In this document: positions 7,233 to 11,901 of the stretch, piece after piece
How the letters are laid out: every line of letters begins with the position of its first letter
How positions within the stretch are numbered: position 1 is the first letter of the stretch
The notes under the pieces: generated by a model
Told to the model about the DNA's origin: nothing
The model's database searches: none
The model's input: only the letters and a program-made list of their open reading frames with translations
Source: a virus
Strand: one strand, 5' to 3'
DNA: 16,081 nt
UHGV virus genome: UHGV-1809260
Position numbers and translations under genes: made by a program

Positions 7233-7528
7233 ACAACCTCCTTCCGCAGCATGAGAATTGTGTAGCCACGCGCAGGTTGTAGTCTGGCTTTTGCATCAAT
7301 AGTAAGCGTTGCAATTTTTCGGATATGAAGATAACCAGCTCTTTCCAGTGCCAGGGTTTCCCTGAATATCGCTTGCTTAGAACAACAGCAGAAATCAGCA
7401 AGCACCTGATGATCAATAACTCTCTCGCCTTCACCGTCTGAAGAACCCGACATCAAAACGCGCAACATAATCAGGCGCTGAATCGGGTTATCGAAAGCAC
7501 ATCCGCACACAAACTGAAAACAGTTCAC
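7229..7528 (-). CDS. Small helix-turn-helix-like protein (99 aa)
   Basis: GTG start at 7528 preceded by GGGAGG with a 6-nt spacer. Segment VLADFCCCSKQAIFRETLALERAGYLHI looks like a helix-turn-helix. Stop overlaps the replication gene start. Confidence 0.6.
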   Translation of the reverse strand: MNCFQFVCGCAFDNPIQRLIMLRVLMSGSSDGEGERVIDHQVLADFCCCSKQAIFRETLALERAGYLHIRKIATLTIDAKARLQPARGYTILMLRKEVV

Positions 7529-7749
7529 GCCACACCTCCCAGACGCTTAAACATTTTTCCGGAGCAAAAGGCTATAAGCGGCATACTGACGCGGTAATTA
7601 CGGCCCAGCGGTTCACAAATCACCTTCTGACATTCACGGTCAACCAGGCTAACACGTAGAACATGCCCTGCAGGCGTGGTGTACCACTGACCCGGACGAG
7701 GACAACGGAAAGTCTGATTGGTAAAACGTTTGAAAATATTCCGGATCAT
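7525..7749 (-). CDS. Hypothetical small protein (74 aa, four Cys)
   Basis: ATG at 7749 preceded by GGGGG with a 5-nt spacer; GTGA/ATGA overlaps with both neighbours. No family recognised. Confidence 0.55.
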   Translation of the reverse strand: MIRNIFKRFTNQTFRCPRPGQWYTTPAGHVLRVSLVDRECQKVICEPLGRNYRVSMPLIAFCSGKMFKRLGGVA

Positions 7750-8897
7750 TTGCGCCCCCTTGCCTCTGAAGGGTTCAGCGACAAATTTATGAGGCAGGCC
7801 AGCGCCGAAGCATCATTAATATAGTCATATAAGCTAACAGCCAGCGGAGATTCGGCTTTTGCCAACATAGGATAAAGCTGCTGCAGCCAGACCTGATGAA
7901 TTGATGAAATGTAGGAACAGAGAACGCTGGCGTTATGTGCAACGTCGCTCGGTACAGCAGGCTTTGAAAGCTGTTTCTCCATCTGGTTAAAGGCATTGAT
8001 GTATGCCTCTTTGAACTTGGCAGCACGTTTACCCGTGAAACCCATAGCAAGAAACGCAAAACCGTCGCGGGTGATTTGGTAACAAGGGAGTTTGCGGCCT
8101 GATGCGTCGGTGTATTCACTTAACACAAAAATGTGTTCAGTAAATTCAGCGGAACATTCGAGGTTTCTAATTCTATCTAAAACCCGCTCATGCCGTTTAG
8201 TAAAGTAATTAGCTACTGCAAGAGATGTGGTGACAACGCGACCATTGATAATCGTGATTTCAGGGTGAGATTGGGTTGGGAGAGTAGTCATGGTGACAGC
8301 CCCTATGTTGAATTCAATGAACTCACCACCAAGGCTTTCCACGACCATATAGGTGGTGAGACGTACAGGGGTGGAAATACCGGTCAACATAGAACCCGGC
8401 CCAACCGAAGTTGGCCCTGCACGCCCCACCATAATTTGGGCGTAACGATGCTCATGACACGAAAAAACCGCATGAGCGCGGTTGTGCTCTATATTGAATT
8501 TCGGGTTTCCACGCCCGGCACCCGCTTTATAAGGTGCCGGAACAGTGTAACGTCCCGGAATTGCAGAATCAATATGCTGGTGTTCCTTCACACTCAACAA
8601 AATCACGCCTGAATTTCCACAAAGGACTAAAGCACTCATGCGGGTAGTCTTTGCGAAGATAGATAACGCGCTGTGTTTCTGGCTCCCAACGAATAACATG
8701 GACATAAAGCCCTCTTCCGTCACGAAACCAGCGGTTAAGTTCCTGCACAACTCGCCCCCCACAGTCAGGTAAAGTTCTCTGTGGTTACTTACAGCCAGGT
8801 GATTTGGTAATCTGCATTCATGCCGTAACAACAGGTGTTCAGCGACGCTGACCACCAGCTGTTGCGACAAACGGTTATTTGCCGTTAAACTGTTCAT
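7746..8897 (-). CDS. Rha-family phage regulatory protein with an unusual ~200-aa N-terminal extension
   Basis: Residues ~203-305 (MTTLPTQSHPEITIINGRVVTTSLAVANYFTKRHERVLDRIRNLECSAEF...) match the Phage_pRha pattern. The frame stays open upstream to the ATG at 8897, which overlaps the upstream stop (ATGA) and has a GGAGA site. An internal ATG at 8291 also has an AGGGG site. Confidence 0.65.
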   Translation of the reverse strand: MNSLTANNRLSQQLVVSVAEHLLLRHECRLPNHLAVSNHRELYLTVGGELCRNLTAGFVTEEGFMSMLFVGSQKHSALSIFAKTTRMSALVLCGNSGVILLSVKEHQHIDSAIPGRYTVPAPYKAGAGRGNPKFNIEHNRAHAVFSCHEHRYAQIMVGRAGPTSVGPGSMLTGISTPVRLTTYMVVESLGGEFIEFNIGAVTMTTLPTQSHPEITIINGRVVTTSLAVANYFTKRHERVLDRIRNLECSAEFTEHIFVLSEYTDASGRKLPCYQITRDGFAFLAMGFTGKRAAKFKEAYINAFNQMEKQLSKPAVPSDVAHNASVLCSYISSIHQVWLQQLYPMLAKAESPLAVSLYDYINDASALACLINLSLNPSEARGRK

Positions 8898-9478
8898 GCG
8901 TTAGTTTCTCCACAACCAGAAGCAATCGACGCCACGACGCCCGGAGCTGCACACTCGCGGGCGTTACTCTTTTCCGGCGCACAAAAAACACGAAATAACA
9001 GTGTTAAATGCTCCTGCCACTTCGCCATTACTTGGTAGCTGTTCTCTTCGATTTGCTCACGCTCAGCCTGGTCAATAACTCCATCAGCAGTTGCCTTGCG
9101 TAAGTACTGGGAATGCTTGCCAATCCATTCTATTGACTCCATCAGCCGCTGATTAATGTCACCATTGTCAATGTCATCAATGTCCACCAGCGGCACAAAC
9201 ACCCCATTACAACGACGCGCTATCGCATCCGTTACATGCCTGGTACCACTGGCATCCTGTAAAACCATGGCCCACTCAAGTGGAAAAATTTGATCCCCAC
9301 CGCTACGCAGTCTGTTATGCAATTGATCTTTCGCTGGGGTGATATCATCAGATTTATACAAACCAAGAATTTCCGCTGCTTCCTCATAGCCATGAGGTAA
9401 ATCAGCAATCGTTCTTCGTATTGCTGCCACCAGCCATGCTGGTTGCTTATCAACTTTCCATTCAGGTTCTTTACCCAC
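8894..9478 (-). CDS. CII-like regulatory protein (phage 186 CII / CP76-like), start uncertain
   Basis: Segment KDQLHNRLRSGGDQIFPLEWAMVLQDASG...CNGVFVPLV parallels 186 CII (LRNKLNPEQPHQFTPPELWLLTDL...CLPCVPV) from memory. Chosen start is the GTG at 9478 with GAGGAA Shine-Dalgarno; the frame is open to ATGs at 9556 and 9589, which lack a Shine-Dalgarno and overlap cro. Confidence 0.5.
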   Translation of the reverse strand: MGKEPEWKVDKQPAWLVAAIRRTIADLPHGYEEAAEILGLYKSDDITPAKDQLHNRLRSGGDQIFPLEWAMVLQDASGTRHVTDAIARRCNGVFVPLVDIDDIDNGDINQRLMESIEWIGKHSQYLRKATADGVIDQAEREQIEENSYQVMAKWQEHLTLLFRVFCAPEKSNARECAAPGVVASIASGCGETNA

Positions 9479-9530
9479 GGTTAATTCCTCGTTTCTGTGG
9501 TTACGTTTACGCAGTTGAACCGCTAACTTT

Positions 9531-9770
9531 TTAATAGCACTCAGGTAATCCATCATTTGGATTGGGGTAAATATCAGGACGCAGTTCATGAGGGGTCACG
9601 GACCAGTTTCCCAACTCACAAAGTTGTAAAACCCGTTCTGACGGGACTTGATTGTTAATTACCCAATTGGCGACGGATTGAGTGGACTTAAAACCAAAGC
9701 GACGGGCTACTTCAGATAAAGATTTTCCCGCAGCCTTTACTGCTTTCTCTGTGTAGTTTTGAGATGACAT
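9531..9770 (-). CDS. Cro-like (YdaS-like) HTH repressor
   Basis: 79 aa; AGGAG Shine-Dalgarno upstream of the ATG at 9770. HTH segment KSLSEVARRFGFKSTQSVANWV and a C-terminal HELRPDIYP motif. Divergent from the cI-like gene across an operator-containing intergenic region. Confidence 0.8.
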   Translation of the reverse strand: MSSQNYTEKAVKAAGKSLSEVARRFGFKSTQSVANWVINNQVPSERVLQLCELGNWSVTPHELRPDIYPNPNDGLPECY

Positions 9771-9840
9771 ACCTTTCTCCTCTGAAATTCAGAGGGATAA
9801 TGCTACTTAAAATAGCAAATTGCAACTACTTAAAATAGAA
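9771..9840. promoter_or_regulatory. Divergent PR/PRM-like promoter-operator region
   Basis: Two copies of CTACTTAAAATAG (9803-9815, 9826-9838) within 17-bp near-palindromes (TGCTACTTAAAATAGCA at 9801-9817). Separate palindrome CCTCTGAAATTCAGAGG at 9779-9795 overlapping the cro ribosome-binding site. Candidate PR on the minus strand: -35 TTGCAA (9820-9825), 17-bp spacer, -10 CATTAT (plus-strand coordinates 9797-9802). Confidence 0.5.
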
Positions 9841-10581
9841 ATGACTAGCGCGTGCGATGTGAGTAATCTTCTACCTATGGTAGAAGAACAGAAGTATCCA
9901 GATTTCGCCAAGAGACTAAACGAATTGATGACAATCAAAGGAATCTCTGTCACTCAACTCAAAAGTCTTGTGGGCGTTACATATGAAATGGCTCGTCGAT
10001 ACACAATCGGCGCAGCGAAGCCACGTGTCTCTGTCATGAGTAAACTTGCGTTGGCTCTTGGAGTATCAGCTTCATATCTAGAATATGGTGTTGGAGATAG
10101 AGAGGAATGTAAGGAAATGGCAAGCATCCCCAATCCAACAAAGCCCGATGTATACAGGATAGAAGTTTTGGATCTTAGCGTTAGCGCAGGACCTGGGACC
10201 TATATGCTTTCAGACTATGTTGATGTGCTCTACGCCATTGAGTTCACAACTGAACATGCCCGTTCTCTTTTCGGAAACCGTTCTCAGAATGATATAAAAG
10301 TTATGACGGTAAATGGAGATAGTATGTCCCCAACTCTTGTTTCCGGGGATCGATTGTTTGTCGACATTTCCGTTCGCCACTTCCAGACTGATGGAGTTTA
10401 CTCTTTCGTTTACGGTAAGACTTTCCATGTTAAACGTCTACAAATGCAAGGCAACAAACTAGCTGTTCTTTCGGATAACCCCGCCTATGAGAAATGGTAC
10501 ATTGATGAGAAGTCGCAAGATCAGCTTTATGTTATGGGTAAGGCACTGATTCATGAGTCGATTAAATATAATCGACTTTAA
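9841..10581 (+). CDS. cI-like prophage repressor (N-terminal HTH plus C-terminal S24 LexA-type autopeptidase)
   Basis: HTH segment ISVTQLKSLVGVTYEMARRYTIG; Ala-Gly cleavage site (SVSAGPG); catalytic Ser in VNGDSMSPT and Lys in FHVKRL. The track start at 9820 is TTG; I prefer the ATG at 9841, with 9877 as an alternative. Confidence 0.85.
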   Translation: MTSACDVSNLLPMVEEQKYPDFAKRLNELMTIKGISVTQLKSLVGVTYEMARRYTIGAAKPRVSVMSKLALALGVSASYLEYGVGDREECKEMASIPNPTKPDVYRIEVLDLSVSAGPGTYMLSDYVDVLYAIEFTTEHARSLFGNRSQNDIKVMTVNGDSMSPTLVSGDRLFVDISVRHFQTDGVYSFVYGKTFHVKRLQMQGNKLAVLSDNPAYEKWYIDEKSQDQLYVMGKALIHESIKYNRL

Positions 10582-10815: not shown

Positions 10816-11901
10816 ATGATTAATGAACGTACTGAAGCGACAGATGGGGTAGCAGATATGATTTCCACCAATACAAAATATTTAGTATGGAACAACAAAG
10901 GTGGTGTAGGAAAAACTTTTCTTACATATAATCTTGCCGTTGAGTTTGCTATATCTCATCCGGATCAAGATGTTGTGGTTATTGACTCATGCCCTCAATC
11001 AAACGTTTCAGAAATTATTCTTGGTGGCAATGGTACCGGGGAAGAAAATCTAAATAAATTGCGAGACAGAAATGTTACAATCGCAGGTTATATCAAGGAG
11101 CGTTTTAGCAAATCTCCTTTGTCTCGTTTAGGAAATGAATCTTCTTACTTTGTACGAGCCCATGATGTTAATGCAAAAATGCCAGAGAACTTATATATTC
11201 TTCCTGGTGATGTCGATCTTGATATCTGTTCACGCTTAATATCTCACATTGGCTCATCCCCAGTAAAAGAAGCATGGAAGAAAAGCCGATCTTTGCTGGT
11301 AGATCTAATAGCATCTTTTGAAGCCGATAAAAACATTTCTGACAGAGCAAAAACATTTTTTATTGATTGTAATCCAAGTTTTGCCAGCTACACAGAATTG
11401 GGAGTAGTCGCGGCAAATAGAATAATTATCCCTTGCACTGCCGATGCTGCATCAATTCGCGGAATAAAAAACCTTGTTAAACTTATTTATGGAGTGTCTA
11501 TTGACAAGTCAGAACAAGATGAAATGTTCTTAGATTTCAACAAAGAAGCAAAGCAAAACCTTATCGAACTACCTGAACTACACCTTTTCGTACAAAACCG
11601 CTCAAGAACTAATGAAAGTGATGCAGCAAAAGCATTCAAATCACATGCAGAAGAGATCAAAAGAATCACGGATGACCTGTTAAATACACATCCTCATCTG
11701 TTCACAAATGTGGCTACTTTCGAGAGAGTTCAAAATGTCAAAGATGGTAATACTCTTGCAGCAATAATAAACCATGAGGGATGCCCTTTAAGTAGGCTGC
11801 AGCATAAGAGTTACACTATCTATGGTATGGCGACCCAAGCTAATAGAGCACAAATTGAAGCACTAGAATCTGATGTTTCAACAGTAGTCAAGTGTCTGTA
11901 A
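10816..11901 (+). CDS. Orphan ParA/MinD/Soj-superfamily P-loop ATPase (361 aa) in an AT-rich island
   Basis: Deviant Walker A WNNKGGVGKT, Walker A'-like VVVIDSCPQSN and Walker B-like TFFIDCNPSF. About 130 extra C-terminal residues with no recognisable family. AGGA site upstream of the ATG. No ParB-like gene adjacent. Confidence 0.8.
   Translation: MINERTEATDGVADMISTNTKYLVWNNKGGVGKTFLTYNLAVEFAISHPDQDVVVIDSCPQSNVSEIILGGNGTGEENLNKLRDRNVTIAGYIKERFSKSPLSRLGNESSYFVRAHDVNAKMPENLYILPGDVDLDICSRLISHIGSSPVKEAWKKSRSLLVDLIASFEADKNISDRAKTFFIDCNPSFASYTELGVVAANRIIIPCTADAASIRGIKNLVKLIYGVSIDKSEQDEMFLDFNKEAKQNLIELPELHLFVQNRSRTNESDAAKAFKSHAEEIKRITDDLLNTHPHLFTNVATFERVQNVKDGNTLAAIINHEGCPLSRLQHKSYTIYGMATQANRAQIEALESDVSTVVKCL

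Follow-up and report, generated by a model that had tools for sequence, protein, structure and literature searches.

In phage P1, the antisense RNA C4 is processed from the same transcript that carries its targets, one pair of which, the boxes a1/b1, lies upstream, and the other, a2/b2, at the ribosome site of the first gene. This first regulated gene is the small icd, to which ant is coupled, and the cargo of the operon is an antirepressor produced as two in-frame isoforms. The c4-icd-ant1/ant2 (immI) operon of P1 and P7 was reportedly described by Citron and Schuster in 1990 and by Biere et al. in 1992. In the satellite P4, as summarised in PMC10111431 from Forti et al. (1999), the gene eta is coupled to the one before it and can be translated from no promoter other than the late one upstream. 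Translation of eta prevents immunity-dependent termination, and the short gene nested in it, kil, is the immunity-controlled product. P4-like IsrK-C4 systems are carried by some lambdoid Salmonella prophages (Barquist et al. 2013, PMC3632133), and the one of Gifsy-1, IsrK-orf45(STnc1160)-AnrP, has been characterised by Hershko-Shalev et al. 2016 (PMC4825925). According to that study, orf45, which covers the C4 region, is conserved in its nucleotides and variable in its amino acids, is translationally coupled to the cargo and is fused to it in Shigella dysenteriae; IsrK activates translation in trans, and the cargo is described as antirepressor-like. The locus considered here, a minus-strand open reading frame (ORF) at 7746-8897 in a stretch of 16,081 nucleotides (nt) of the virus genome UHGV-1809260 (the window), belongs to this known kind, that of P4 eta/kil and of IsrK/C4 immunity. 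The long frame is probably a nested dual-start gene of the P4 eta/kil type, built around an RNA immunity cassette.

The two nested frames are the following.

7746-8897, minus strand: long open frame of 383 codons in the ORF listing, with a PGAP homologue, read here as an Eta-like read-through ORF
7746-8291, minus strand: nested short ORF of 181 amino acids (aa), the Rha-family protein proper, with ATG at 8291-8289 and the Shine-Dalgarno sequence (SD) AGGGG at 8304-8300

The long frame (1152 nt) starts with an ATG at 8897-8895 that shares bases with the TGA (8896-8894) of the upstream ORF 8894-9589, so that the two form an ATGA, and a GGAGA at 8911-8907 lies 9 nt 5' of it. The second ATG is in frame, corresponds to Met202 and is separated by a spacer of 8 nt from its AGGGG. 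Both starts with their ribosome sites, and the roughly 200 codons of open frame between them, had been pointed out in a preliminary description of this DNA and are confirmed by reading the sequence. In the best reading, the short form is the regulated 181-aa Rha protein and the long form an Eta-like read-through frame. The in-frame dual-start gene that the same description had offered as one possibility is thus favoured, as 8291 is a conserved start targeted by C4 and the long frame has the anatomy of P4 eta, although the description missed the reason for the extension, which carries an IsrK/C4 cassette and an out-of-frame DUF4222 gene and shows no selection at the amino-acid level in its own frame.

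The Rha domain occupies aa 223-308 of the long frame (encoded at about 8231-7974), where Pfam PF09669 Phage_pRha matches with an E value of 6e-30 and 104.1 bits against a cutoff of 29.9; the NCBIfam model TIGR02681 agrees on Rha, with 98 bits against a cutoff of 45.95. The recognisable Rha part therefore begins about 20 codons past Met202, and if ATG 8291 is taken as the start the domain becomes N-terminal, as is usual for the family. Judging from its coding pattern (see below), the amino-acid-constrained functional protein of the locus is the 181-aa Rha product made from ATG 8291.

The DNA between the two starts contains, in its second half, a promoter-like site, two structured RNAs and the boxes by which they would interact.

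8544-8572, minus strand: putative sigma-70 promoter, TTGATT (8572-8567), 17 nt, TACACT (8549-8544), from alignment with other cassettes
8461-8537, minus strand: IsrK / P4 seqA-type RNA (Rfam RF01394)
8512-8506, minus strand: box a1, GUGGAAA, C4 target inside IsrK
8498-8489, minus strand: box b1, UUCAAUAUAG, C4 target inside IsrK
8483-8466 (stem) with a U run to 8462, minus strand: intrinsic terminator of IsrK, from a terminator scan
8349-8436, minus strand: C4 / P4 CI-type antisense RNA (Rfam RF01695)
8392-8384, minus strand: loop b' of C4, CUAUGUUGA, in the loop of hairpin 2
8378-8371, minus strand: single-stranded a' of C4, AUUUCCAC, following hairpin 2
8289-8342, minus strand: downstream C4 target region, from a2 through the ATG
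8342-8336, minus strand: box a2, GUGGAAA, downstream C4 target
8312-8303, minus strand: box b2, UUCAACAUAG, overlapping the SD AGGGG (8304-8300) before the ATG at 8291-8289

The isrK model scores 61.6 bits at 8537-8461, above its gathering threshold of 50, and the C4 model matches over its full length (1-87) at 8436-8349 of the minus strand with 82.4 bits against a threshold of 45; a third model, RF03163 c4-a1b1, reaches 25.8 bits, below gathering. The C4 fold, a long closing stem with two hairpins, is borne out by compensatory changes at 16 of its 22 pairs in an alignment of 12 sequences from E. coli, P4, Marinomonas and Endozoicomonas. Among 49 distinct C4 sequences, in an alignment that was itself fitted to the model, 98.1% of cells pair and 21 of 27 pairs have changed on both sides, against 35-48% paired in slid controls. 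The minimum free energy fold of the cassette reproduces the C4 architecture and has a z of -5.5 against shuffles.

The loops of C4 are complementary to both pairs of target boxes. With a1/b1 (8512-8489), a' and b' give a duplex of C4 loops and IsrK of -32.7 kcal/mol (z -3.6), and with a2/b2 (8342-8303) one of -28.2 kcal/mol. The sequences of a' and b' differ among 12 cassettes, which come from E. coli, Citrobacter, P4, Marinomonas and Endozoicomonas, and both target pairs change along with them; in every one of the 12, an SD (GGAGG, AGGGG or GAGG) and then an AUG come after b2. As a' and b' covary with both target pairs and b2 always stands before an SD and an AUG, ATG 8291 is a conserved start targeted by RNA. 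The putative promoter ends 7 nt before the 5' end of IsrK and aligns in position with PisrK of Gifsy-1 (TTGACA/TATATT) and with hexamers of the TTGACC and TTGCCA types in other cassettes; in P4, a TTGCCT-N17-TATAGT can be read directly just 5' of the isrK match, outside the aligned window. It is the least variable stretch of the whole extension (pi 0.029), and rearranged copies of the cassette all begin at about 8577-8582, just 5' of it.

An invariant AUG at 8432-8430, within C4, encodes Met156 in the long frame; it corresponds to the AUG at which orf45 of Gifsy-1 begins, and by this analogy is possibly a third start of the gene. The tetranucleotide AUGG at this 5' edge of C4 (8432-8429 in the window, alignment columns 5-8) is present in 12 of 12 cassettes from E. 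coli to Marinomonas and in 70 of 74 distinct ones surveyed. A cassette of an Shiga toxin (Stx) 2c phage (L002, 3361-3837; relatives are designated by L numbers), compared with 8537-8289 of the window, has identical b' loop and b1/b2 boxes and a different a' (ACGCCAA against UUUCCAC), with a1/a2 changed to match, and its cargo is an unrelated 77-aa ORF after the common codons MTTLPT. Since boxes are partly shared and the cargo is unrelated, specificity boxes and cargo appear to have been exchanged as modules.

The closest counterpart of this arrangement is the immunity region of P4, ORF88(vis)-eta[seqA-cI-seqC]-kil, which has the same parts in the same order: a long ORF whose ATG lies on the upstream stop (ATGA), a promoter inside that ORF, a seqA/IsrK RNA that contains a1/b1 and ends in a terminator, the CI/C4 RNA, and then target boxes abutting the SD and AUG of an in-frame short ORF. 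In the P4 sequence, ATGATGATG at 8767 overlaps the stop of ORF88 (8767-8764) and opens a frame of 199 codons around the isrK and C4 matches, in frame with the SD and ATG 8365 of kil, an ORF of 65 codons. Rfam isrK and C4 match the seqA and cI regions of P4, and the Pfam family Ash matches the obsolete P4 CDS (coding sequence) 'cI gene product (137 aa)' exactly where the CI RNA lies. Even the first codons of the short ORFs resemble each other, MATTLTPSHPE in P4 and MTTLPTQSHPE in the window. The two loci differ in that P4 is a satellite, whereas the host element here is the early operon of a lambdoid prophage (e14/ST64B/mEp460-like); in the short product, which is the 65-aa Kil in P4 and a 181-aa Rha-family protein here; and in the long ORF, of 199 codons in P4 and 383 here, where it also overlaps DUF4222 in another frame.

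Gifsy-1 shares homologous IsrK and C4-like RNAs, the same position of the promoter and a b2 box beside the SD of the cargo, and its orf45 AUG is the invariant AUG at the 5' end of C4, that is, AUG 8432 here. Its cassette, however, is intergenic and stands alone, without the enclosing long ORF seen in the window, and orf45 ends on the start of anrP (AUGA), whereas the equivalent frame from AUG 8432 runs in frame into the cargo. The Rha protein is not a homologue of AnrP (BLASTP E 3.9); only the RNA cassette is common to both. The P1 operon has its own promoter and, unlike the cassette of the window, is not nested in an ORF of an early operon.

Whether the extension evolves as a protein can be judged from an alignment of 55 distinct homologues, in which variable sites were counted at codon positions 1/2/3 of the long frame.

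ORF positions 1-149: 13/20/10 variable sites
ORF positions 150-329: 5/23/10 variable sites, the excess being at the third position of DUF4222 (p=0.001)
ORF positions 330-606: 41/43/41 variable sites (chi-square p 0.97)
ORF positions 607-930, the Rha part: 36/30/81 variable sites (p 1e-7)
ORF positions 931-1149, the C-terminal part: 21/15/48 variable sites

Downstream of 8291, the pairwise amino-acid identity of frame 0 is far above that of the other frames. At positions 331-606 it is about equal in all three frames and below the nucleotide identity, and at 151-330 it is the DUF4222 frame that is best conserved. With neither an excess at third positions nor an advantage of frame 0 at the amino-acid level upstream of 8291, the extension is not under amino-acid selection in its own frame. 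Since it is not a conserved protein domain, the novel fusion considered in the preliminary description finds no support.

The same description had been unable to assign the N-terminal region to any family, which does not hold, since aa 117-213 match Pfam PF10554 Phage_ASH (2e-8, 35.1 bits against a cutoff of 26) and the same DNA matches Rfam isrK and C4. This Ash match covers exactly the isrK, C4 and target DNA, and at positions 330-606 neither codon periodicity nor frame-specific amino-acid identity, as would be expected of a protein domain, was found. The annotation of such loci misses the RNAs and reads their translation as an 'Ash' domain, and a DUF4222 gene is hidden in another frame, as it also is in ymfM of E. 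coli K-12.

8569-8748, minus strand: DUF4222 gene of 59 codons in the +2 frame, with a GTG start after GGGGGG, from Pfam and the codon-position pattern

This ORF overlaps codons 50-110 of the long frame. Pfam PF13973 DUF4222 matches 8748-8569 with an E value of 9.4e-14 and 51.2 bits against a cutoff of 27, and the amino-acid identity to Citrobacter in its frame is 0.85, against 0.75 and 0.68 in the other two. The same out-of-frame ORF is found in the prophage e14 inside ymfM, with a TTG start, and in an Stx1a phage, with an ATG start. In NZ_CP116197, PGAP calls it as a separate CDS (WP_001341559.1), and the Rha CDS there is shortened to 297 aa. PHROG 1170 matches only aa 48-98 of the long frame, that is, the stretch overlapping DUF4222, and no NCBIfam family was found for the first 202 aa of the window's protein. 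The first 150 nt of the frame (8897-8749) show no significant RNA structure (z -1.4), no alternative ORF and no coding signature.

The open frame itself nevertheless persists among relatives, of which 51 distinct upstream regions were sampled with the Rha part alone as the query. Across the 606 nt 5' of ATG 8291, the long frame has 0 stops and the other two have 8-15; in 46 of the 51 relatives it is free of stops for 202-203 codons, so that no in-frame stop separates the two parts, and it has been lost in two (L135 and L175). Rearrangements keep it as well. In one relative (L123), an in-frame deletion of 291 nt removes DUF4222 and joins MNSLTANNRL to the IsrK region, and two others (L111 and L138) have a second cassette in tandem, which continues in frame from the opening codons of the following gene, the ATG of which lies across the stop before it; all three independent junctions are therefore in frame with a coupled ATG. 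In these tandem-cassette relatives it is the first codons of the ORF that corresponds to 7525-7749 that start the second long frame. An Stx1a phage with 54% aa identity and a different upstream gene still has a frame open from beside the upstream stop through DUF4222, IsrK, C4 and Rha. A survey with a DNA pattern and a purpose-built covariance model yielded 70 distinct C4 cassettes. In 42 of them the long frame is free of stops over the length of the cassette; for the other two frames the same is true of 7 and 4. The stop-free ones include the E. coli, Citrobacter and P4 cassettes examined, and those of Marinomonas and Endozoicomonas carry 1-5 stops. In at least 16 cassette contexts the ATG of the long ORF overlaps the stop of the upstream ORF. 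The regulated AUG lies 141 nt 3' of the C4 AUG here, a multiple of 3, and this distance is 0 mod 3 in 38 of 61 cassettes. On these sequence comparisons, what is conserved seems to be the passage of ribosomes over the cassette rather than a fusion protein.

Tandem modules of promoter, IsrK, C4 and Rha are seen in some relatives (L095, 1501-3521; L111, L135, L138), with the second copy beginning from about 8577-8582 and joined to the opening codons of the gene that follows; in the second copy of L135, there is a frameshift in the T run of the IsrK terminator. In another group (the viral contigs L246, L239, L211, L215 and L250, together with L223 and L240), the SD and AUG after b2 open an ORF of 64-76 codons in another frame, and both overlapping frames are open, in a manner reminiscent of icd/ant of P1.

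Three other explanations have to be weighed against a nested dual-start gene. It could be argued that only the short products are real, namely DUF4222, the 181-aa Rha protein and possibly a 228-aa protein from AUG 8432, and that the 383-codon frame is never translated from 8897, being an accident of shared ancestry and of the constraints of RNAs and overlapping genes that gene callers have mis-annotated. The absence of any codon-position signal or frame-specific amino-acid conservation 5' of 8291 fits this view, as do the intrinsic terminator and the two structured RNAs inside the frame, the stand-alone cassettes without such an ORF, the two relatives that lost the frame, and the precedent of the P4 leader, which was once mis-annotated as a 137-aa 'cI protein'. 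We consider it unlikely all the same, given the count of zero stops against 8-15 in 46 of 51 relatives, a frame that is open in Stx1a phages too, where aa identity is down to 54%, the joining in frame to a new coupled ATG at all three rearrangement junctions, and ATGA-type overlaps with the upstream gene in at least 16 contexts; moreover, P4 eta is reported, in PMC10111431 citing Forti 1999, to be translated and to be needed for read-through. An early view that the long ORF was simply spurious was given up once relatives had been sampled without bias, the junctions had proved to be in frame and P4 had provided a precedent. A two-domain protein, with a functional N-terminal 'Ash' (PF10554) fused to Rha as in PGAP, in Pfam-based papers and in phage records, would account for a Phage_ASH match above cutoff at aa 117-213 and for an Ash-plus-Rha combination that recurs in Stx and other phages and is discussed in PMC8951638. 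This is very improbable, since the Ash match falls on the very bases matched by isrK and C4, as it does in the obsolete 'cI protein' ORF of P4, codon periodicity is lacking and amino-acid identity is equal in three frames, the nucleotide changes are those that preserve RNA pairs, and the Marinomonas and Endozoicomonas RNAs carry 1-5 stops in the Ash frame. The last alternative, a decaying fusion in which a ymfM-like remnant was joined to Rha by loss of a stop, can point to e14 of K-12, whose homologous frame (ymfM) ends after 112 codons and in which cassette and Rha are absent. But e14 is itself a defective, deleted prophage and thus represents the derived state, and the fused frame is the rule in relatives from E. 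coli, Salmonella ST64B and Citrobacter at 70-98% aa identity and has been re-created at new junctions. As nearly all relatives have the frame intact, and three independent junctions have restored it, the pseudogene remnant suggested in the preliminary description is unsupported, and such a decay is scarcely credible.

Several observations weigh against the nested dual-start reading itself. The loss of the long frame in L135 and L175 (2 of 51) means that it is dispensable in at least some copies, and stand-alone cassettes, such as those of Gifsy-1 and Marinomonas, have no long ORF at all. In a subgroup of cassettes the regulated AUG is out of frame with the long ORF, which is still open there, so that in-frame nesting is common and not obligatory. 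The putative internal promoter agrees with the consensus at only 8 of 12 positions, and a generic consensus promoter scan of 8200-9000 called no site. A comparison of observed alleles with all possible ones on the consensus background, aimed at stop avoidance, does not speak for either side: alleles that create stops turned up even within the real Rha part, since diverged haplotypes differ at several bases of a codon. Ribosomes on the long frame would also have to cross a real gene, DUF4222, that is read in another frame, which is unusual. Finally, translation from 8897, processing of C4 and control of termination are all inferred by analogy with the known systems.

With these points taken into account, the model of a nested dual-start gene proposes that in the lysogen, by analogy with P4, P1 and Gifsy-1, the CI-like repressor would shut the early promoter, and the internal promoter would then make IsrK and, through read-through and processing, C4. 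By pairing with a2/b2, C4 would occlude the ribosome site of ATG 8291 and block translation of Rha, which would be antirepressor-like; the untranslated RNA would terminate, and Rha and the downstream genes would remain silent. After induction, transcripts from the early promoter would carry the ymfL-like gene, the ribosomes of which would start again at ATG 8897, on the overlap of the two genes, and read on across the IsrK terminator, C4 and the target sites. Such translation from 8897 is proposed to make early transcription insensitive to immunity and to yield the 383-aa isoform, in the first 200 residues of which the translated length would matter and the sequence would not. It is a more tentative and rather doubtful proposition that the first 600 nt are read in three ways, as a DUF4222 gene, as two RNAs and as an open frame serving as a sequence-independent 'ribosome conveyor' that would override RNA immunity.

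The genes around the locus make the window the early and immunity region of a lambdoid prophage. At 9820-10581 lies the gene for a CI-like repressor with helix-turn-helix (HTH) and S24 domains, and a Cro-like gene, the YmfL/CII-like gene and the long ORF run divergently from it in that order. Downstream of the long ORF, HTH-type genes at the position of replication genes are followed by Dam, RusA and KilA-N genes. The immediate neighbours are two.

8894-9589, minus strand: upstream YmfL / CII(CP76)-like gene (Pfam Phage_CP76, 1.9e-7; 'YmfL family' in PGAP)
7525-7749, minus strand: downstream ORF of 74 codons, its ATG overlapping the Rha stop (ATGA)

As called mechanically (231 codons), the YmfL-like ORF overlaps the Cro-like ORF (9531-9770, minus strand) by 59 nt; in the PGAP annotation the homologue has 192 aa, and the true start of the window's gene is therefore probably further downstream. 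The 74-codon ORF has no Pfam match at E<=0.1. By eye it shares the pattern W[FY]..G..V.V...Q[KR]VI...PL..F with the DUF4222 ORF 5' of the cassette, and on this resemblance the cassette and the Rha gene may lie between two paralogous small genes. A gene for a ParA-family ATPase, an unusual neighbour in lambdoid immunity, directly follows the CI-like repressor gene (10816-11901, plus strand) and is also present in the closest E. coli relative (L001). Families of small RNAs (sRNAs) such as STnc100 and AsxR/AgvB are known from Stx and lambdoid prophages. The left end of the window has copies of STnc100 on the minus strand, strong at 226-435 and 713-918 and weak at 501-674 (165, 141 and 30 bits), as well as an AsxR/AgvB-like match on the plus strand at 170-222 (63 bits, at gathering); a tRNA scan of the whole window found none.

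The long-ORF family lies directly 3' of cro and cII-like (ymfL-type) early genes in many prophages of E. coli, Shigella and Salmonella, including Stx-converting ones. PGAP annotates the closest E. coli homologue as a single 383-aa 'Rha family phage regulatory protein' CDS, and full-length relatives with 75-86% aa identity are found in Stx-converting phages, mEp460, cdtI and Salmonella ST64B. DNA related to the 2.2-kb region from the ymfL-like gene through the Rha gene occurs in 2255 of 5426 complete E. coli genomes, with at least 80% coverage in 42 only, and the cassette matches 117 phage records. The labels given in databases vary, with lengths of 383, 340 or 297 aa and names such as 'Rha', 'Ant', 'transcriptional regulator' and 'hypothetical'; 'peptidase' also appears on the long ORF in several phage records (OQ243220, MT225100, OP745618). 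Among the matches listed, no RNA feature is annotated under any of them.

The relationship with e14 of K-12 extends to the start of the frame. The context of the ymfM start (ymfM is annotated as 'cell division inhibitor YmfM', SfiC) is identical, with MNSLT... and an ATGA overlap with ymfL, but the frame closes at 112 codons, and neither the RNA cassette nor the Rha gene is present. Outside the DUF4222 overlap, e14 YmfM and the window's peptide are not recognisably similar, the DNA alignment having gaps of 14, 5, 20 and 1 nt there, and no Pfam family was found for YmfM or for the window's first 100 aa. The e14 counterpart of the DUF4222 gene is an unannotated ORF of 59 codons in K-12 MG1655 (L004, 802-981; about 1204001-1204180 of NC_000913.3), which has a TTG start with AAGGAGA upstream, lies out of frame in ymfM and extends 20 nt beyond the ymfM stop into ymfN. 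The experiments on division inhibition by ymfM cloned the whole ORF (bioRxiv 10.1101/2020.11.19.390815), and when the text of that paper was searched for start codons, stop codons or truncations, as signs of a test of the frame, none were found to be mentioned. With the whole ORF cloned and no such test mentioned, the product behind filamentation is not settled by that experiment. If the conveyor reading were true, the 112-aa YmfM (SfiC) would be the decayed stump of a conveyor frame, and filamentation would come from the out-of-frame 59-aa DUF4222 protein, also carried on the cloned fragment. The locus thereby raises a testable question, namely which product of the K-12 ymfM locus inhibits cell division.

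Recognition of the IsrK/C4 cassette explains the odd architecture of the long ORF and identifies the start codon that is regulated. It also serves as a warning that what surveys of satellites and Stx phages take as a protein marker, the 'Ash domain' of Pfam, largely tracks an RNA element. For the prophages that carry such a locus, it predicts a second, RNA-based layer in the control of lysis and lysogeny.

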